Source: a virus
Lineage: Duplodnaviria; Caudoviricetes
Reading direction: 5' to 3' (one strand)
Length of the DNA stretch: 29,167 nt
Virus record (IMG/VR): IMGVR_UViG_3300034073_001388
Span: 1-29,167 of that record
The notes under the pieces were generated by a model. It was given only the letters and a program-made list of their open reading frames with translations, ran no database searches and had not been told where the DNA came from. This document shows positions 4,800 through 16,164 of this stretch, one piece after another. A program made the translations under genes and the position numbers. Numbering within the stretch: the stretch's first letter is position 1; each line of letters starts with the position of its first letter.

Positions 4800-4840
4800 A
4801 ACATAGCATGTTGCGTCAACGCACACCTTTCTGCTACCAT
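4800..4840. promoter_or_regulatory. Divergent promoters: plus-strand TTGCGT-18-TACCAT and minus-strand extended -10 TGCTATGTT
   Basis: TTGCGT 4811-4816, tgcTACCAT 4832-4840, minus-strand TGCTATGTT 4808-4800, and inverted repeat TGCGT-CA-ACGCA 4812-4823. Confidence 0.5.
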
Positions 4841-4846
4841 CCAAGG

Positions 4847-5040
4847 CAACACCAAAAGAATACGGACCCTAAACGGTTACATTCCTCCCAACCACAATCA
4901 TCGGTTGGGGCAGCATGGTTAGACCGCACGGACACATGGCCTGAAAAGGGGACCGATGGTGGTCGCCTTCTTTCGGTATAAAGAACAGACGGGTTCAGGC
5001 GTAAAACAGAACTTGGGGGGGCTTATAAACCTGTAGCCCG
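4847..5040 (+). ncRNA. Candidate structured non-coding RNA
   Basis: No convincing ORF. Stems CCCAACC/GGTTGGG, GCCTGAA/TTCAGGC enclosing GACC/GGTC and TTCTTT/AAAGAA hairpins, and GGGCT/AGCCC. Follows a sigma70-like promoter. Confidence 0.4.
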
Positions 5041-5291
5041 TCGCCTCTAGCCGCCAACCACCAGAAGAGGGAGTGCTTACGCACAACCACCAACCTCCGA
5101 CCCTCTGAGCCTCGATGCTCTAGAAGCAAACACCCGAAACCTGCACAACCACACAAACCCTACCCCCCCCTCCCTGCCTCCCTGGGTCACAAACCTGCCA
5201 CCAACAAAAATGACCACACAGACCGACGCTTATACATACACATAGAGGGGGGTGGCTCGGCAGACCCCCCGTGACCCGTCGCCCCGTCGTG

Positions 5292-5325
5292 CGAACACAC
5301 GTTCGCCCCACCAAACACACGTTCG
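5292..5325. promoter_or_regulatory. Two LexA (SOS) boxes
   Basis: CGAACACACGTTCG 5292-5305 is a perfect CGAAC-RNRY-GTTCG. CAAACACACGTTCG 5312-5325 has one mismatch. Confidence 0.75.
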
Positions 5326-5372
5326 CCTGCTCACTCTCCGCAGTCAACCCACCACAACCCCCCACCCCCACC

Positions 5373-5417
5373 AAGTTACCCGTCAGTAAGTTACCCGTCG
5401 GTAACTTCCGAGGAAGT
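5373..5417. repeat. Tandem palindromic GTTAC-N6-GTAA(C/G) operator-like repeats
   Basis: AAGTTACCCGTCAGT AAGTTACCCGTCGGT AACTT with 15-bp period, followed by palindrome ACTTCC-GA-GGAAGT. Confidence 0.7.
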
Positions 5418-5425
5418 CCGCCTAC

Positions 5426-5488
5426 TGTTAGGTGAGCCTTACAAGTTGTTAGGTGACCCTTACGGGTTGTTAGGGTTGCCTTACAGGT
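5426..5488. repeat. Three 21-bp tandem repeats resembling DtxR/IdeR iron boxes
   Basis: TGTTAGGTGAGCCTTACAAGT / TGTTAGGTGACCCTTACGGGT / TGTTAGGGTTGCCTTACAGGT. The core matches the first ~15 nt of TWAGGTWAGSCTWACCTWA. Confidence 0.65.
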
Positions 5489-5524
5489 TTGGGGGTTTGT
5501 TGCGGTTGTGTTACAGTTCGCTAT

Positions 5525-5579
5525 TGTGACGAAAGTCACAGTGGAAAAAGTTGACAAGTGGCGACGGGTTCGCTATGGT
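5525..5579 (+). promoter_or_regulatory. Early promoter P1 with upstream CRP-family box
   Basis: TGTGA-CGAAAG-TCACA 5525-5540; TTGACA 5551-5556, 17-bp spacer, TATGGT 5574-5579; 5' hairpin 5586-5606. Confidence 0.8.
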
Positions 5580-5627
5580 GTACTCATCGGGGGAAAGCCC
5601 CCCGATACCTAGAGAAAGGGTACACAA

Positions 5628-5795
5628 GTGAACAAGCAACAGACACTCGCAAGGGTGACCAAGACGGGAACCGCCTTCGATGGCGCGACCGTTGAGGTCA
5701 TCGGGGCGAGCGAGACGGAAGGACACCTTAGCGTGTCTCTCATCGGCTACGACACCGTGCTATCGGTGGCGGAAACGAACCTAGAGCGTATCTAG
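5628..5795 (+). CDS. Small early hypothetical protein (55 aa)
   Basis: GAGAAAGG RBS, GTG start, MNKQQTLARVTKTG...NLERI. Below the ORF-track cutoff. Confidence 0.75.
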   Translation: MNKQQTLARVTKTGTAFDGATVEVIGASETEGHLSVSLIGYDTVLSVAETNLERI

Positions 5796-5798
5796 GTA

Positions 5799-5848
5799 GC
5801 CCGAAACGCCGTGAGGCGTCTGGCGGTTTCTCCGCCACTGATGAGGGC
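5799..5848 (+). ncRNA. Type II hammerhead ribozyme
   Basis: GCCC-GAAAC-GCC-GTGA-GGC-GTC^-TGGCGG-TTTCT-CCGCCA-CTGATGA-GGGC. Intact core (CUGAUGA, GAAA, GUC) with all three stems paired; cleavage predicted after 5820. Confidence 0.92.
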
Positions 5849-5872
5849 AGAACCCTGAGAGAAAGGTAAGAC

Positions 5873-6103
5873 ATGATTACGAGAAAGGACTACCAAGCCA
5901 TAGCGAAACTACTCGCGGTAGTAGGCGCGGAATCCCAAGAACACCGAACAGCGACCGACCAAGTAGCCGAGAAACTCGCGGACTACTTCGCGGTCACTAA
6001 TCCGAGGTTCGACCGAGAGCGTTTTACTTCGGCTTACCGAGTCGGGTGGGCTATCCTTCGGGCAGTGAAGCGCGTAGAGGAGTCGCGCCCCGTCACCGTC
6101 TGA
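5873..6103 (+). CDS. Early hypothetical protein (76 aa)
   Basis: GAGAAAGG RBS. MITRKDY...NPRFDRERF pattern recalled from small phage early proteins. Confidence 0.85.
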   Translation: MITRKDYQAIAKLLAVVGAESQEHRTATDQVAEKLADYFAVTNPRFDRERFTSAYRVGWAILRAVKRVEESRPVTV

Positions 6104-6112
6104 GGCAATACG

Positions 6113-6201
6113 ACCCTAGCCAAGTTTAGACTTGACTCGCCCGCGATAGGCGACTAGGGTACAAGGTAGAGCGTGCTCGTGGTGAGTACGCTACCGAATA
6201 C
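6113..6201 (+). ncRNA. Intergenic tRNA-minihelix-like structured element, copy 1
   Basis: 7-bp stem ACCCTAG/CTAGGGT, hairpin, 5-bp stem with 7-nt loop, ACAA, then GGTA-hairpin-TACCGAATA. Confidence 0.65.
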
Positions 6202-6218
6202 GAGAAAGGCAAAACAGA

Positions 6219-6593
6219 ATGACCAGAAAACAGGCGTTCGATTCCGCAATGCGTGAACTACGCAAGAACGGAATCACCGCGAAACGAAATGTTCAGGGCT
6301 GTTGTCGTTCGTGCGTAGCGTACGACCTGCCCCACGATAAGCCACTCGTCTGGCACTACGGCGGACAGGGAAACGCGTTCACTTGGCGGAACGATAAGCC
6401 CGTCTACACCTACACGCCCACCTACCAAGACGAAGAACCGATAGCGTCTATCTTCCTGAATCATTCGGGGCTAGTCGCCGATTCTGGCGAGCGCACCGAG
6501 GCGGGGCGGGTTGTGGTGGAAACATTCCTACGGCACGGGTTCGGGGTCGTCTGGAACGGCACCGAATCCAAGTGTGTAGAGGTGGTGTTCTAG
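6219..6593 (+). CDS. Early hypothetical protein (124 aa, CCxxC motif)
   Basis: GAGAAAGG RBS; GCCRSC motif; C-terminal VVWNGTESKCVEV. Confidence 0.85.
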   Translation: MTRKQAFDSAMRELRKNGITAKRNVQGCCRSCVAYDLPHDKPLVWHYGGQGNAFTWRNDKPVYTYTPTYQDEEPIASIFLNHSGLVADSGERTEAGRVVVETFLRHGFGVVWNGTESKCVEVVF

Positions 6594-6603
6594 CAAGGTT
6601 GCG

Positions 6604-6688
6604 ACCCTAGACAGGTAATGCTTGCGTGAGGCTCACGACCTCGCTAGGGTACAAGGTAACACTAAGCGTGGTGCTTGGTGACCGAATA
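6604..6688 (+). ncRNA. Intergenic tRNA-minihelix-like structured element, copy 2
   Basis: Same architecture as copy 1 with different but still paired internal stems. Confidence 0.65.
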
Positions 6689-6710
6689 ACAACAGAGAAA
6701 GGCAACACAA

Positions 6711-7013
6711 GTGAAAACGGATTATTGGTACACAAGTATTAACGAGATACGGTACGAGGCGAAGCGAGCAGGCTCGCATTTCTTCGATGCCGACACGATG
6801 CGATTCTTCGGCAGTCGGGTTCTACCGACTGTCTACGGGGGTCGCTACTTCATTACGAGCGAGCAAGACCACTACGGCAACGGGGCGAAGGCGTACACGA
6901 TTCGCATAGCCCTAGCAGGTGGAAACATAGACACGGTGGGCGACTTCCAAGCGTACGCGACGAGGGCGCAAGCGGTGTCAGCGGTGAAGCAACTACTCGC
7001 CGAGGGGGTGTGA
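6711..7013 (+). CDS. Early hypothetical protein (100 aa)
   Basis: GAGAAAGG RBS; HFFDADTMRFFGSRV...YFITSE motif. Confidence 0.85.
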   Translation: MKTDYWYTSINEIRYEAKRAGSHFFDADTMRFFGSRVLPTVYGGRYFITSEQDHYGNGAKAYTIRIALAGGNIDTVGDFQAYATRAQAVSAVKQLLAEGV

Positions 7014-7234
7014 CCGTGACCGAGCAAGAGAAACTAGACGAGGCGCTACGCACAATAAACTTGTGCCTGCGTGCGGTCGGGTTGGATACCCACCTCGGGC
7101 ACCGAACCCCGCAGACGCTACGCCTCAGTGCCGAGGGTGCTGAGAAGATAGCGGAAATGTTGCGCCGAATCGCCGATAATACGCGGGCGAAAGTGCGTGC
7201 CGAGCGCGAGTGGAATCAGAAGTGGGGTGCGTGA
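7010..7234 (+). CDS. Early hypothetical protein (74 aa)
   Basis: GTGA start/stop overlap with the upstream gene. Confidence 0.75.
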   Translation: MTVTEQEKLDEALRTINLCLRAVGLDTHLGHRTPQTLRLSAEGAEKIAEMLRRIADNTRAKVRAEREWNQKWGA

Positions 7235-7383
7235 CCGTGCCGAAGTGGGATAACTACACGAGCGCGTGCGACATCTGCGGGTATCGCATGGAAGGGTACG
7301 CCGAACACGAGACAGTGTGCGGGGCTTGCCTTGACGAGATAGAGCAACAAGAAGCCGACAAGAAAGAGAAGGTGAGCAAGTGA
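7231..7383 (+). CDS. Small zinc-finger-like protein (50 aa)
   Basis: GTGA overlaps at both ends; CDIC...CGAC. Not in the track. Confidence 0.7.
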   Translation: MTVPKWDNYTSACDICGYRMEGYAEHETVCGACLDEIEQQEADKKEKVSK

Positions 7384-7751
7384 CGCACGACGAACTCTAC
7401 GCACTAGCGACCCGTCACGGGCGAGACGCAGCCGAAAACTATTGGGTAACCGACCCCGCAGAACCCGAGCACGCTCGGGAATGGATACGCACCGCCGAGG
7501 CAGGCACACTACACGATTACGTTCTGCCTTCGCCGTTCGATGACTTCATGCCGAGCGACCTGAACACCGAAGGGTGGTCGTGGGGCGAGTTGGCAGACTA
7601 CGAAGGCTATTGGCTCGGGGCTTACTTAGAGCGCACGACAGAACTTATGCGCGGGAAGTTGGCTGAGGTGTGTGACTGTGACGGGTTGGAAGATGACCTG
7701 AAAGAGGAAGGTTACACCTGCTACAAGTGCTACGAAGGAGACGCGGAATGA
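7380..7751 (+). CDS. Acidic early hypothetical protein with C-terminal Cys cluster
   Basis: Coupled ORF; CDC...CYKC. Confidence 0.8.
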   Translation: MTHDELYALATRHGRDAAENYWVTDPAEPEHAREWIRTAEAGTLHDYVLPSPFDDFMPSDLNTEGWSWGELADYEGYWLGAYLERTTELMRGKLAEVCDCDGLEDDLKEEGYTCYKCYEGDAE

Positions 7752-8020
7752 GCGCGACAGTGTTCACCGTGTGGGTCGGCGGTTGCGAAGTGAACGACCA
7801 CTACCTCGGCGCGTTTGAGGCTGAGACGATAGCGGAATCGTGGCGCGATGACGGGTACGACGATGTTGTCGTGGAAGAACTAGCCGAGTGTCCCGCGTGC
7901 CTCTGGCATTATCCGCTTGGCGGGTGGGTTCGTGTCGCTTGGGAAGTGATGGGCGACCCGCGCACCTCTGTCGAAGTGTGTCCCGACTGCGGGCGACACG
8001 CCGAGGTGGTGACCGTATGA
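7748..8020 (+). CDS. Early hypothetical protein with two CxxC motifs
   Basis: ATGA overlap, GAAGGAG RBS; CPAC...CPDC. Confidence 0.75.
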   Translation: MSATVFTVWVGGCEVNDHYLGAFEAETIAESWRDDGYDDVVVEELAECPACLWHYPLGGWVRVAWEVMGDPRTSVEVCPDCGRHAEVVTV

Positions 8021-8175
8021 GGCACGCCGAATACGACTGCGACAGGTGCGGGGCTGAAACCCCCGACGGGCACGGGCACTACTACAAGGGCGAGAGGCTG
8101 TGCCCTGAGTGCTGTGAGGGGTTGCCGTTCTGGGAATACCTAGACGCTGACCTGACGGTAGGCGACGATGATTAG
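8017..8175 (+). CDS. Small zinc-finger-like protein (52 aa)
   Basis: ATGA overlap; CDRC...CPEC. Confidence 0.75.
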   Translation: MRHAEYDCDRCGAETPDGHGHYYKGERLCPECCEGLPFWEYLDADLTVGDDD

Positions 8176-8305
8176 GTTCATGTTCTGGGCGGTCGTCGTG
8201 AACCTCGCTTGCTTCACCCCGATTCTGTTGACGTGTCTAGCGTTTTGGGATTCGCAGGGTCGCCGTCAGTCGTTCGGGCGTTGGCTGAAAGAGAGGTTGC
8301 TATGA
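8168..8305 (+). CDS. Small membrane protein (45 aa)
   Basis: MIRFMFWAVVVNLACFTPILLTCLAFW...; overlaps both neighbours. Not in the track. Confidence 0.6.
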   Translation: MIRFMFWAVVVNLACFTPILLTCLAFWDSQGRRQSFGRWLKERLL

Positions 8306-8499
8306 GACCGCCGATAGTGGGGTATGCGCTCGGGCATACTTGGGTTGTGATGCTGACTGTCGGGTTTCTGTCTGGCTCGGTGGTGACGATGACGCTTGTC
8401 GGGTTGGCGGTGTATCCGTTTTTTCATCTTGGGGTGAAGGTGTGGCAGGTGTGGCGAACAGGTGTTCGTCGAACAGGTGTTCGGGGGTGGGGTCAATGA
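8302..8499 (+). CDS. Small membrane protein (65 aa)
   Basis: ATGA overlap, GAGG RBS, two hydrophobic segments. Confidence 0.6.
   Translation: MRPPIVGYALGHTWVVMLTVGFLSGSVVTMTLVGLAVYPFFHLGVKVWQVWRTGVRRTGVRGWGQ
8455..8483. promoter_or_regulatory. Tandem perfect LexA (SOS) boxes
   Basis: CGAACAGGTGTTCG at 8455-8468 and 8470-8483. Confidence 0.8.
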
Positions 8500-8515
8500 C
8501 CACGCCGTTTCGTAG

Positions 8516-8561
8516 TGTGACAAGAGTCACACTTGACAAACTGCCGAAAGTGTGCTATGAT
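8516..8561 (+). promoter_or_regulatory. Early promoter P2 with abutting CRP-family box
   Basis: TGTGA-CAAGAG-TCACA 8516-8531; TTGACA 8533-8538, 17-bp spacer, TGcTATGAT ending 8561; 5' hairpin 8568-8586. Confidence 0.85.
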
Positions 8562-8605
8562 GGTTTCGTCGGGCTGGTCGCCCGACACGAGAGAAAGGAG
8601 AGGGG

Positions 8606-8860
8606 GTGAACAAAGTGGACACCCTACAAGAAGATGAGCAGGTAACTCTGAACATCACCATGTCACGAGAAACAAAAGAAGAAGTGATGATGGCAGTGTT
8701 CAGGTACTACCAAGACATACTCCGAGCGATGGAAGAAGTGAAGCACAGCAATACGGAGTATGACAAGAAAGCAAGAGAAAAGAGAGAAAGAATCTGCCAA
8801 AACTTAGTGGCGGTACTAGGAGACTGGTACTCCCGCTGTGCGTTGCGTTACGAAATGTAA
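8606..8860 (+). CDS. Early hypothetical protein (84 aa)
   Basis: GAGAAAGGAG RBS; A-rich coding. Confidence 0.75.
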   Translation: MNKVDTLQEDEQVTLNITMSRETKEEVMMAVFRYYQDILRAMEEVKHSNTEYDKKAREKRERICQNLVAVLGDWYSRCALRYEM

Positions 8861-8866
8861 CTGGCA

Positions 8867-8926
8867 GGGTGACTAGCAGGCTGGGGAGTGCGAGCCTCCC
8901 CCACCCGCAAGGTAGCGATACCGAAT
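8867..8926 (+). ncRNA. Intergenic tRNA-minihelix-like structured element, copy 3 (divergent)
   Basis: GGGTG/CACCC stem, GGGAG-TGCGAGC-CTCCC arm, GCAA, GGTA-GCGA-TACC-GAATA. Confidence 0.55.
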
Positions 8927-8960
8927 ACCAAACAACCAACAGAGAAAGGACAACTAAATC

Positions 8961-9326
8961 ATGGGCGCAGACCTGATGATTAGCGCAATAGAAATCAAAC
9001 ACAACGAGGAAACAGCACTCCGAAAGGTTGACGAGTTGGCGATTACCGAAGCCGACTTATCCAACCTCACGGACATCGGTGTCTGGCGTTACGAGGACGA
9101 GGAGTTCACTCCCGAACTTGTCGAACGGATAAAAGCGGACTTGCGGAAAGCCGTCAAGGTCGTCTACCACTCAGGCAGGCGAGATACCACTCGGTTCTAT
9201 GTTGATTACGGCAAGACTAGCGAACGCAAGTTTGTCGTTACGGGTGGCATGTCGCACGGTGACGCACCAACCAACGCTTGGGATTCGTTCTGCCTAGTTG
9301 AGGCGTTTGCCTCAGTCATGGAATGA
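8961..9326 (+). CDS. Early hypothetical protein (121 aa)
   Basis: GAGAAAGG RBS; MGADL...VTGGMSHGDAPT. Confidence 0.85.
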   Translation: MGADLMISAIEIKHNEETALRKVDELAITEADLSNLTDIGVWRYEDEEFTPELVERIKADLRKAVKVVYHSGRRDTTRFYVDYGKTSERKFVVTGGMSHGDAPTNAWDSFCLVEAFASVME

Positions 9327-9492
9327 TGATGCCTCGGCGTAGCGAGTGGGGGTGCGATGCTTGCGGGTGTCGCATCACTCTTCACGTCACGCCGTCTGAA
9401 CCGCCTCGCCATAGGTGCGGTGGTTCTGCTCGGGCGGAGAAGTTCATACAACTAATACCAATAACCAAACAAACAGAGAAAGGGAACAAGTA

Positions 9493-9660
9493 ATGACCAC
9501 AGAAACAAGAAAGTTGGTGGCGGGATTCGTCATCTTCGACAAGACCACAGGCAGAGTGCTCGCCACACTGCCCCAAACCCTCTCCATCGGAGACACGGTG
9601 GACGGGTTCACCCGTGCGGGCTACGAAGTGGACTGGCACTGGAAGGAGATGGAAGCGTGA
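9493..9660 (+). CDS. Early hypothetical protein (55 aa)
   Basis: GAGAAAGG RBS at 9476 and ATG at 9493 (track start 9415 unlikely). Confidence 0.75.
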   Translation: MTTETRKLVAGFVIFDKTTGRVLATLPQTLSIGDTVDGFTRAGYEVDWHWKEMEA

Positions 9661-9911
9661 AGCCGATACCAGCAAACGCAACGGGGGCGTGGTGCACCAT
9701 CAAGTACCACGACGAAGACAACACACTCTCGCCCGTGTTCTTCTCCTTCGGAGAATACGACGAGGACAAGGACATGGTGTACGACTCGCTCGGACACCGA
9801 GACGACCTCGTGTTCTTCTACACTTCGCCAGAAGAGTTGCCCGACCTTATGACCGACTGGGGTCAAGACTTCCAAGTGCTCTCGGTCGAGTACTACGAGG
9901 TGGCACGATGA
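9657..9911 (+). CDS. Acidic early hypothetical protein (84 aa)
   Basis: GTGA overlap. Confidence 0.8.
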   Translation: MKPIPANATGAWCTIKYHDEDNTLSPVFFSFGEYDEDKDMVYDSLGHRDDLVFFYTSPEELPDLMTDWGQDFQVLSVEYYEVAR

Positions 9912-10222
9912 CACGCACGGCAACAGTCGAACAGTGGGAAGCGTTCTTCCGACCCGTACCCAACACCATCAGCGACGAACCATCATGGCAAGACCTCGAC
10001 GGGGTAGGGATAATGTTCTCCACGTCTGGCGAGGAACACGAGTTCGTGTGCGACCACAACCTCAAACGCCAAGTCTGGACATGGGTCGACGGCGACGACG
10101 GAACCTACATCGTGAACGGCTACTCGTTCGTGAACCGTATCGGCTACTTCGTAACCGAGATACCGTACGACGACGGCGACAGTTGGGAAATCAAGGTCGA
10201 TGACTTTGAGGTGGCGGTATGA
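9908..10222 (+). CDS. Acidic early hypothetical protein (104 aa)
   Basis: ATGA overlap, GAGG RBS; VWTWVDGDDG...VNRIGYFVTE. Confidence 0.85.
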   Translation: MTRTATVEQWEAFFRPVPNTISDEPSWQDLDGVGIMFSTSGEEHEFVCDHNLKRQVWTWVDGDDGTYIVNGYSFVNRIGYFVTEIPYDDGDSWEIKVDDFEVAV

Positions 10223-10695
10223 CGCACCCCGAACTCCCGTTCACACCGTACGACGGAACAGGCGGTCACGCAGGCTCAGAGGCAAGCCGACTCAGAGCAG
10301 AGACGGAAGCCGAAGACGGCACACTCGCAGACAGACAAGCCCTCATCTTGGACTACCTAGACAAGACAGGTGCTGGCGGTGCGACATGGGCAACCACAGG
10401 ACAAGCACTCAGCCTTCATCACGGGCAAGTCTCAGGCGCGCTATCGAACCTTCACCAAGCAGGGGCGGTGTTCATGCTGAGGAAGCGAAGCAACCGAAGC
10501 CACCCGTACATACACGCCAAGTATCGTGCGTTCTACACCGACGCAGAGGTACACGACTCACCCAAGACGACGAAGGCTGGGCAGAGGCGGGTCAGGTTGG
10601 AAGAGTTGGTGGCAGCGTGCCGTGACGGGCTGACATCGGGGTTTGACGGGCAGCGTATCGCTGGCATCGTCAAGGCTCTCGATGAGTTGGCTTAG
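10219..10695 (+). CDS. Winged-helix DNA-binding protein
   Basis: RQALILDYL...GATWATTGQALSLHHGQVSGALSNLHQAGAV is wHTH-like. Confidence 0.7.
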   Translation: MTHPELPFTPYDGTGGHAGSEASRLRAETEAEDGTLADRQALILDYLDKTGAGGATWATTGQALSLHHGQVSGALSNLHQAGAVFMLRKRSNRSHPYIHAKYRAFYTDAEVHDSPKTTKAGQRRVRLEELVAACRDGLTSGFDGQRIAGIVKALDELA

Positions 10696-10960
10696 ACGAT
10701 TCCGACCCAAGCCCACCCCCAGACGCACCGTATGGCGAGCAGAACGAGCCGACGGGAAATGTTGGGCTGGGGAATACCTGTGGCAGGGTCGGACATTCAC
10801 CCACGATGAACGGTTCATCTACCTGTGGGGCAGTGAGGCTGCGTGCCGTGCTGCGATTCAGTGGCGGGGATTTGCGAACGTGCGCCCCGTCGAGGTAGAG
10901 TTTGATAGTTCTGTGAAACGCCCAAAGAAAAAGCGGTACAACCACAACCGCTGGCGTTAG
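10682..10960 (+). CDS. Basic hypothetical protein
   Basis: ATG 10682; last gene before the hairpin. Confidence 0.65.
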   Translation: MSWLRRFRPKPTPRRTVWRAERADGKCWAGEYLWQGRTFTHDERFIYLWGSEAACRAAIQWRGFANVRPVEVEFDSSVKRPKKKRYNHNRWR

Positions 10961-10961
10961 C

Positions 10962-11016
10962 AGTGGAGTCTCCCCGCCTCTCGTTCACCTTTCTCCGAGG
11001 GGTGGGGAACTCTACT
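10962..11016 (+). terminator. Long hairpin at the convergence of early and middle operons
   Basis: About 21-bp stem whose G-U pairs favour plus-strand RNA; 12-nt loop TTCACCTTTCTC. Confidence 0.7.
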
Positions 11017-11410
11017 CGCTGTCTTCCCAACCTTGATTAGTTGCCCGCCACACGGCAGCAGGGTTCATCGCTTCGCAACTCTTCTTCTGTTCGACTGACT
11101 CATAGAGGCGCACGATGTGGATACACGGGTCGTTGCCTTCGTTCAGGTCTTCGTCTTCGCCCGCTGTCACAGCAAGACCGTCGTGCGTGTAGCACATGGG
11201 CGGTGAACACCACCCCGATTCGTAGCCGATGCGTGCCCAAGTATCGAAGTCCATCTGGTTGCTCATATAGTACGCGATTCCTTTCTCTGTTATCTGGTAC
11301 ATCTCTTCCCCGTTGTCGTCGATGCCGACGACTTCGAGTATCCCTTCCTGTTCGAGCGCGGTCAAAGCGTTCTTCAGTAGGCTGAAACTTACTGGGTCGA
11401 AGTCGTTCAC
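11012..11410 (-). CDS. Hypothetical protein, wHTH-like N-terminus
   Basis: GTG 11410 overlaps the upstream stop; LTALEQEGILEV...YQITEKG. Confidence 0.75.
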   Translation of the reverse strand: MNDFDPVSFSLLKNALTALEQEGILEVVGIDDNGEEMYQITEKGIAYYMSNQMDFDTWARIGYESGWCSPPMCYTHDGLAVTAGEDEDLNEGNDPCIHIVRLYESVEQKKSCEAMNPAAVWRATNQGWEDSE

Positions 11411-12175: not shown

Positions 12176-12351
12176 TATTCATCTCCTCTGTTGTGTATTA
12201 GGTTGTTCATTTTGTTTCCATACTCTGCCACGAGTTGTTCCAACATGGCAACTTTTCGTAGCAGTTCTCTTTTGTCCTCGCGTAGCGAGTCCAAATCTCG
12301 TTGTAGGTCGGTTATCCACGCTTCGTAGAAGATGGATTGGTTGTCGCTCAT
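12175..12351 (-). CDS. Coiled-coil hypothetical protein (58 aa)
   Basis: GGAG RBS, ATG 12351, heptad pattern. Confidence 0.75.
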   Translation of the reverse strand: MSDNQSIFYEAWITDLQRDLDSLREDKRELLRKVAMLEQLVAEYGNKMNNLIHNRGDE

Positions 12352-12617
12352 GGTGTCTCCCGTTTGGTTGGTCGTATGTTTCTGCGTTGGATGGGTGTGA
12401 GTCCGCCCCAGATTCCGTAGTTGATGCGGTTGTTCACGGCGAACATGAGGCATTGTTTCTTGACGGGGCAGGTGGCGCAGATTTGTTTGGCTTCAAGGTT
12501 GTGTTGGTTGTAGCCGACGTTGGGGAAGAAGGTGTCGTAGTCGGTGCCGAGGCAGGCTGCGTCTTCTTTCCATTCTTGGTAGGTGTCGATGAGACGCCAT
12601 TCGGAGAGGAGTTCCAT
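12348..12617 (-). CDS. whiB: WhiB-family Fe-S transcription factor
   Basis: W...AAC...FFP...AKQICATCPVKKQC...GIWGG: four Cys plus the G(I/V)WGG turn. Confidence 0.95.
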   Translation of the reverse strand: MELLSEWRLIDTYQEWKEDAACLGTDYDTFFPNVGYNQHNLEAKQICATCPVKKQCLMFAVNNRINYGIWGGLTPIQRRNIRPTKRETP

Positions 12618-15563: not shown

Positions 15564-15601
15564 TACCGTGCCTTTCTCTTAGTTGTGATGTTCTGTACTT
15601 C

Positions 15602-15630
15602 ACCGTACAGGAGGGGAGTCACATTGTCAA
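15602..15630 (-). promoter_or_regulatory. Sigma70-like promoter for the recombination/whiB operon
   Basis: TTGACA (15630-15625), 17-bp spacer, TACGGT (15607-15602). Confidence 0.65.
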
Positions 15631-16164
15631 GTTTCTCATTTCGACAAGGTACTTATAGCCTTTTTTGAGGTTGCAGGCGGCGCAGGCAGGGGCAAGATTG
15701 CCTATTGAATGTCGGCCACCCCTGGAAAGGGGAATGATGTGGTCTATGTGCTCAAATCGGCCACCGCACATGTAGCAGGGGCTGTTGCGTATTCGCCTAA
15801 GTTCTTTTGCTGTTACTTTGAAAACGCCAGCCTGAAGTTTTTTGGCTCTTCGTCTCTGTACGTATTGTACTTGGTCTCTAATCCTTTGCTCGCGTTGACT
15901 TTTGTATCTGTCCCGTTGATAGGAAACATTGCGCTCACGATTGTTCCAATAGCGCGCTCGCGCTTCCGCTCGGAGACGTGGAAGATGGCTGTTTCGAAAT
16001 CGCCGTTGAGCCGCAATTCTGGCCGCCCGATTTTTTTGATACTTTGCTTTATCGTGTTTTTTGTGACAAGGCCTACACATCCTGGCCAGCGCGTCATGGC
16101 GTGATTTGTCTGAACGGAACTCCGTCTTGGGTTTAGTGGTGTGGCACTTGGGGCAGTACTTCAT
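15619..16164 (-). CDS. HNH endonuclease (free-standing, homing-like)
   Basis: CYMC...HIDHIIPLSRGG.H...NL...CAACN; N-terminal CxxC pair; visibly AT-richer than its flanks. Confidence 0.9.
   Translation of the reverse strand: MKYCPKCHTTKPKTEFRSDKSRHDALARMCRPCHKKHDKAKYQKNRAARIAAQRRFRNSHLPRLRAEARARYWNNRERNVSYQRDRYKSQREQRIRDQVQYVQRRRAKKLQAGVFKVTAKELRRIRNSPCYMCGGRFEHIDHIIPLSRGGRHSIGNLAPACAACNLKKGYKYLVEMRNLTM

Follow-up and report, generated by a model that had tools for sequence, protein, structure and literature searches.

The early operon of this uncultured phage ends in a predicted hairpin whose loop is complementary to the ribosome-binding leader GAGAAAGG carried by the early genes that open each block. 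Because loop and early motif change together in many relatives, the hairpin is likely, on somewhat better than even terms, to be a self-made antisense brake in which pairing of loop and leader damps the phage's own early translation. The fold, its position at the junction, the preferred strand, the match with block-opening leaders and the joint change across lineages are visible in the sequences themselves.

The phage and its operon layout

The window (the whole stretch of DNA analysed) is a linear virus record of 29,167 bases, 74% complete, in which portal, terminase, head and recombination genes are present. Small genes on the + strand (5628-10960) form a block, taken as the early operon, downstream of two sigma-70-like matches. 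These are consensus matches only: TTGACA-17-TATGGT at the head of the operon (5551..5579, + strand) and TTGACA-17-TATGAT further inside (8533..8561, + strand). The block converges on a - strand operon, called 'middle', with the exonuclease, an SLT-like gene and a WhiB gene. Both stage labels follow from gene content. The presence of the WhiB gene (12348..12599, - strand; PF02467, E 1.7e-22) points to an actinobacterial host. A terminase search of GTDB genomes for the host returned no match. Annotated phage records contain no DNA relative of the window; terminase and exonuclease matches there are mostly about 25% identical, and one small protein is common to the window and two records of one mycobacteriophage.

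The two operons meet at the last early gene (10682..10960, + strand; 92 aa, without Pfam family) and the last gene of the convergent middle operon (ORF 11012..11410, - strand). The latter resembles a fusion of two small genes, which L023, L026 and L031 carry separately and in the opposite order.

A hairpin fills the space between the operons

The hairpin originally predicted at 10962..11016 (+ strand) is confirmed as a stable fold (-35.0 kcal/mol, z -5.98; 0 of 200 shuffles as stable). The predicted structure has a 21-bp stem with one bulge and G-U pairs, closed by a 12-nt loop, UUCACCUUUCUC (10984..10995, + strand), whose 3' 8 nt are complementary to GAGAAAGG. In a 180-nt context the loop is unpaired with a probability of 0.96-1.0. 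The hairpin fills the 51 nt between the stop codons of the last early gene (10958-10960) and of the convergent gene (11012-11014); it starts 1 nt past the former, and its 3' base overlaps the latter. The same region folds on the - strand with -24.8 kcal/mol (z -3.53). The earlier proposal that G-U pairs favour folding of the + transcript also holds in relatives: of 26 hairpins hand-picked from 38, each with 0-6 G-U pairs, 25 fold more stably on the early strand.

As in intrinsic terminators, a GC-rich hairpin directly follows the last stop codon. No U-tract is called 3' of the stem in the window; U-rich tails are found at this place, on the early strand, in the relatives L245, L284, L305, L306 and L316. 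A scan restricted to sigma-70-like promoters gave no match on the + strand from 10014 to the hairpin, and neither Rfam at gathering score nor ARAGORN gave a match in the window.

The loop matches the leaders of block-opening genes

Among the 8-mers of the early operon GAGAAAGG ranks first, with 8 occurrences against a mean of 0.2 and a maximum of 4 in 300 Markov sequences. The whole window carries 8 copies on the + strand and 4 on the - strand. The motif stands before every one of the 7 early genes that open a block behind an untranslated gap, and before no member of the set of 12 overlapping early ORFs. One of these 12, ORF 9323-9493, is probably spurious, and gene 9493, which begins 166 nt past 9326, is treated as a head gene. 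On the + strand the leaders are located at 5612..5619 (before the first early gene, 5628-5795), 5859..5866 (gene 5873-6103, behind a hammerhead candidate), 6202..6209 (gene 6219-6593), 6695..6702 (gene 6711-7013, head of an overlapping block to 8499), 8591..8598 (gene 8606-8860, behind the second promoter-like site), 8942..8949 (gene 8961-9326) and 9476..9483 (gene 9493-9660, head of an overlapping block to 10960). An eighth, at 15571..15578 (- strand), belongs to the RecE/YqaJ exonuclease of the opposite operon. The loop had been claimed to complement a motif before at least eight genes, and indeed all seven + strand sites and the exonuclease site are placed shortly before start codons. We infer from translational coupling that the seven leaders are the entry points for the whole early operon, as each of the remaining early genes overlaps the one upstream of it.

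The remaining four copies comprise two inside ORFs (5881 and 3448), one in frame (11287) and the loop itself (10995). The copy at 11287 was rejected as a target, being in frame (EKG) within the longer ORF 11012-11410. Duplexes between loop and leader, computed as free strands without loop constraint, extend over 8-11 bp with energies of -11.3 to -13.1 kcal/mol.

The hairpin in related phages

Loci of relatives were gathered by way of two protein alignments and four proteins encoded nearby, and the hairpin was not used. Junction finding by AT skew was too coarse, and the last early gene was used as anchor, giving 134 loci with 49 distinct junctions. A long hairpin with a pyrimidine-rich loop occurs within about 70 nt of the stop codon in 38 of these 49 junctions (28 found by script, and 10 of stem family 3 added by eye). 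The hairpins fall into three stem families, and throughout them the loop is open and 11-14 nt long. The inner 12 bp of family 1 pair in 129 of 132 cells over 11 distinct rows; both sides change at 4 positions, in part through register shifts. For family 2 the count of both-side changes (13/16) was discarded, as it was inflated by register shifts. The MAFFT alignments were inspected only.

The other 11 junctions lack the hairpin; in 10 the convergent genes appear to run together, and L082 has a weak hairpin only. In 15 hairpin-less loci no other position carries an anti-leader hairpin. Of 63 long loci that lack the anchor gene, just one showed a hairpin of this kind, the cut end of a family-1 hairpin (L249). 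A degenerate pattern of stem family 1 retrieved 12 viral loci, 11 on contigs already in the set and one on a short new contig. The single GTDB match to a 20-nt hairpin pattern was rejected as chance, since it lies between ordinary bacterial genes and has no 5' arm. Two RNA runs include contigs of relatives in small shares (0.11 and 0.05); one contig spans the junction and carries neither strand nor end information. In L066, L072, L075, L139, L165 and other close relatives, the called genes behind the SLT-like gene are all on one strand, and the stretch fetched includes no inverted early block or hairpin.

Loop and early motif change together

The original prediction proposed to compare loop conservation with stem covariation. 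The loop did not prove invariant: it changes jointly with the early motif, and the stem keeps its pairing in family 1 as described above. Variants of the early motif found alongside loop variants are GAGAAAGG, GAAAAGG, GAAAGAGAG, GAGAGAGAG and GGGGTAG. In the window and its close kin, a loop ending in CCUUUCUC accompanies GAGAAAGG leaders, and in L151 a loop ending in CCCUUUUC accompanies AGAAAAGG in 5 of 11 genes. The L270 group combines the loop UUACUCUCUCUUU with AGAAAGAGAG leaders, L315 the loop UUCUCUCUCUC with two GA-repeat leaders, and L284 and L286 the loop CUCUACCCC with GGGGTAG in two leaders each. One leader of L274 matches its loop, UAUUUCCCUUUCUC, over 12 nt.

Each loop was scored against the three best early leaders of each phage. 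The permutation figures from this score overstate the independent evidence, because cores are shared between related loops and the phages themselves are kin; the exonuclease tree is partly unresolved, and the genomes are mosaic. Own loops fit own early leaders at a level reached in 2 of 100,000 permutations for 14 representatives, which were hand-chosen and whose loops were delimited by eye after some leaders had been seen. Reduction to seven distinct cores gives 2 of 5,040 permutations, and addition of two failing phages 424 of 362,880. When a fixed 12-mer is taken from the centre of each predicted loop, the 18 loop types from the 31 of 38 loci having at least 6 early genes give 1 of 100,000 (mean 6.89 against 5.85 nt). 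The same tests on middle and late leaders give 27,359 of 100,000 for the 14 representatives and 8,834 of 100,000 for the 18 types. Within the 14 representatives, which as kin are non-independent, an own-loop match of at least 7 nt is found for 27 of the 72 head genes and for 9 of the 80 coupled ones.

Taken singly, 10 of the 18 loop types beat letter-shuffled loops (at most 10 of 200), the window itself being at 10 of 200. The other 8 fail this test (L151, L182, L245, L260, L271, L285, L305 and L306); L151 drops to 48 of 200 shuffles once its loop is cut to 12 nt. L182 and L245 retain the CCCUUUCUC loop and have early leaders that are mostly GGAGG, L245 being without its operon start. Matches between loop and leader in stem family 3 are short (5-7 nt).

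L086 has GGAGGTA as early leader motif, which its own operon-end loop does not match. A strong hairpin located in a coding frame of this phage (L086:15101-15163, - strand; slt+1542-1604) exposes a loop complementary to GGAGGTA and could be a replacement or a chance occurrence. This second hairpin, which L182 has as well, was not counted because of its place in a coding frame.

The leader of the middle gene homologous to gene 16867 keeps the sequence A(2-3)GGGG(G)AAAC across the GAGAAAGG, GAAAAGG and GAAAGAGAG classes. As this middle leader is nearly constant over three loop classes, a change in the host ribosome does not explain the shift of the early motif. The exonuclease leader tracks the loop from GAGAAAGG in the window's kin to GAGAAAAGG in L151, and is without the local tag in the L270 group (GAAAGAGAG class). 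In 9 hairpin-less phages with enough genes, the top-three mean against any loop is at most 5.7 nt. Leader uniformity does not depend on the hairpin, since GGGAGA recurs in as many as 5 leaders of some hairpin-less phages. L191, which has the hairpin, and L129, which does not, share 94.5% identity along 2.2 kb of the middle arm, whereas their early arms align over only 477 bases. Because the middle arm is near-identical and the early arm barely aligns, the hairpin and the tagged leaders appear to move as one module.

Predicted RNA processing and the proposed brake

A type II hammerhead ribozyme candidate is located in the gap between early genes 1 and 2 (5799..5853, + strand; RF02276, E 0.045). 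It scores 26.3 bits, below the gathering score of 37; all core bases are present and the predicted cut falls after C5820. With altered stems the candidate recurs in L191 and L236, making 3 of 31 early regions. Phage early transcripts carrying hammerheads are already known (PMC3088659). Two further leaders are preceded by tRNA-like three-way folds without an anticodon arm (6113-6160 and 6604-6650, + strand), each composed of a 7-bp closing stem, two short arms and a 7-nt loop, followed by ACAAGG. Their arms co-vary in L191, L235, L236, L283 and L297. They match neither Rfam nor ARAGORN and are possible RNase P/Z processing signals. A related element at about 8864-8912 (+ strand) has a 7-nt loop, tRNA T-loop-like in L236 and L073, and is followed by AAGG. 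If the hammerhead and tRNA-like cuts are real, the hairpin would remain attached to the last block alone and could act on the remaining leaders only in trans.

The antisense brake would most likely operate as follows. Host polymerase would transcribe the early operon, the hairpin forming the transcript's 3' end, and as early RNA builds up the hairpin would survive decay and accumulate as a nuclease-resistant 3' piece. Pairing between loop and leader, over 7-12 bp, would compete with the 30S subunit at the block-opening leaders; blocking of the head genes would then also silence the coupled genes behind them. Action in trans is suggested for at least some targets, because the predicted cuts would detach most leaders and because the exonuclease leader, being on the opposite strand and operon, can be reached by the hairpin only in trans.

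Pairing might instead act in cis or with a positive outcome, the 3' end docking on leaders of the same transcript for folding, stability or ribosome recycling. Co-variation is silent both on the sign of the effect and on cis or trans action, and the hairpin shares its strand with 7 of its 8 targets; in the icaR system, described below, cis and trans action could not be told apart, and the authors report no trans effect in vivo (PMC3868564). We nevertheless regard this as unlikely: the SD itself lies within the paired stretch, most leaders would be cut off by the predicted hammerhead and tRNA-like elements, and the exonuclease leader sits on another transcript.

We give an equally small chance to an ordinary bidirectional terminator or 3' stabiliser without regulatory pairing, where the likeness of the loop results from short repeats copied within a recombining early module. 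Neutral copying would have to produce inverted 8-11 nt matches with leader-unlike flanks in three stem families, which is hard to obtain, and it leaves aside the retention of an open loop of 11-14 nt throughout. The position between two stop codons nevertheless suits a terminator, as do the 11 of 49 junctions in which the hairpin is dispensable, the mismatched loops kept in L182 and L245, and the recombination exonuclease encoded by the phage.

Activity could also reside in the opposite strand or in the DNA. The GAGAAAGG loop at the 3' end of the middle transcript would then be a decoy or site for a reader shared with the early leaders (a phage protein or the 30S subunit), without pairing. The - strand does fold (-24.8 kcal/mol, z -3.5), the middle operon ends there, and a shared binder predicts the same co-variation. 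However, 25 of 26 hairpins favour the early strand through G-U pairs, whose counterparts opposite are A-C mismatches, and several relatives have U-rich tails on the early strand. Such a factor must moreover switch specificity among at least 5 motifs, and no candidate protein was identified, which makes this possibility quite improbable.

The original prediction also noted a resemblance of the loop to the 3' end of 16S rRNA, which stands only in part. The window loop shares UCACCU and CCUUUCU with the 16S tail GAUCACCUCCUUUCU and lacks the CCUCC core. This tail is that of several bacteria, with no actinobacterium among those mapped in PMC6288834, where CCUUUCU corresponds to the last seven bases of the common tail. 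The CCUUUCU overlap arises because GAGAAAGG is itself a ribosome-binding site. A broad block of host translation by 16S mimicry is very improbable, even if AGAAAGG host leaders could be hit, as CCUCC is found in 0 of 18 loop types, a UCACC-like 5' half in 1 of 18, and the other loop types (CU-repeat, CUACCCC) follow phage-private motifs. The likeness to 16S is therefore not conserved and general host shut-off is unsupported. Of the predicted occlusion of ribosome-binding sites, the co-variation thus supports complementarity to the phage's own early leaders and not the host part.

Comparison with known systems

In the icaR mRNA of Staphylococcus aureus, similarly, initiation is blocked and an RNase III substrate arises when a pyrimidine motif in the 3'-UTR pairs with the SD of its own transcription unit (PMC3868564). 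The phage likewise places its anti-SD motif beyond the last stop codon, on the strand of its target. However, icaR involves one gene, one target and a motif in a long UTR (PMC3868564), whereas here the motif is an operon-end loop that matches seven block-opening leaders and has lineage-specific variants. The C4 antisense RNA of phages P1 and P7 also uses loops that pair with and partly occlude ribosome-binding sites of its own genes, loop variation setting specificity (PMC5320573). The loop here likewise complements own-gene ribosome-binding regions and varies with its targets, as 10 of 18 loop types show when taken singly. C4 differs from the single operon-end stem-loop in being built of three, two of whose loops pair, in its processing by RNase P and in its role in lysogenic immunity (PMC5320573). 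The C4 and 6C Rfam models have no match at gathering score in the window and none to E 5 in 4800-11400.

The 6C sRNA of Actinobacteria resembles the hairpin in its chaperone-free pairing, pyrimidine-rich loops and high-GC Gram-positive hosts, and is a precedent for short anti-SD loops that act without chaperone in actinobacteria (PMC6486639). It is a free-standing RNA of the host that has host targets and C-rich loops (PMC6486639), unlike the one CU-rich loop of the hairpin. The T4 RegB endoribonuclease follows the same logic, a shared SD motif of early transcripts being used for their switch-off; RegB is a protein nuclease that cuts GGAG (PMC3014915), whereas the effector predicted here is an RNA loop. 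Judged from its sequence, the hairpin is a real, conserved and co-varying element outside the icaR, C4, 6C and RegB families. No description of operon-end anti-leader hairpins in phages was found in full-text searches of the open literature.

The shut-off of phage early proteins is understood in few cases, in T4 partly through the RegB nuclease (PMC3014915). If the brake is true, a 55-nt operon-end RNA reading a shared ribosome-binding tag would be a protein-free shut-off for a whole operon. A more far-reaching idea, which we hold tentatively and with less than even confidence, is that of a lock-and-key timer, where one loop silences the whole early programme through a private ribosome-binding tag. 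The hairpins would then represent an uncatalogued class of operon-end RNA, the tag would diverge by lineage like an immunity type, loop and tagged leaders would be an exchangeable early module, and incoming phages with the same tag could be silenced. The natural loop/leader pairs (GAGAAAGG, GAAAAGG, GAAAGAGAG, GAGAGAGAG and GGGGTAG) are ready-made compensatory alleles and could yield orthogonal translational switches for actinobacteria.

Additional features of the window

Three direct repeats spaced by 21 nt (5426-5494), which lie upstream of the first promoter-like site and close to the GC-skew minimum, are a possible origin or packaging signal. Short hairpins at 5586-5607 and 8568-8586 (+ strand) are located directly 3' of both promoter-like sites, just before a GAGAAAGG leader. 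The intergenic region 9330-9445 (+ strand), before the leader at 9476, is strongly folded (-54.9 kcal/mol). On the - strand, an HNH/endonuclease VII-like gene (15619-16164) is inserted directly upstream of the exonuclease leader.
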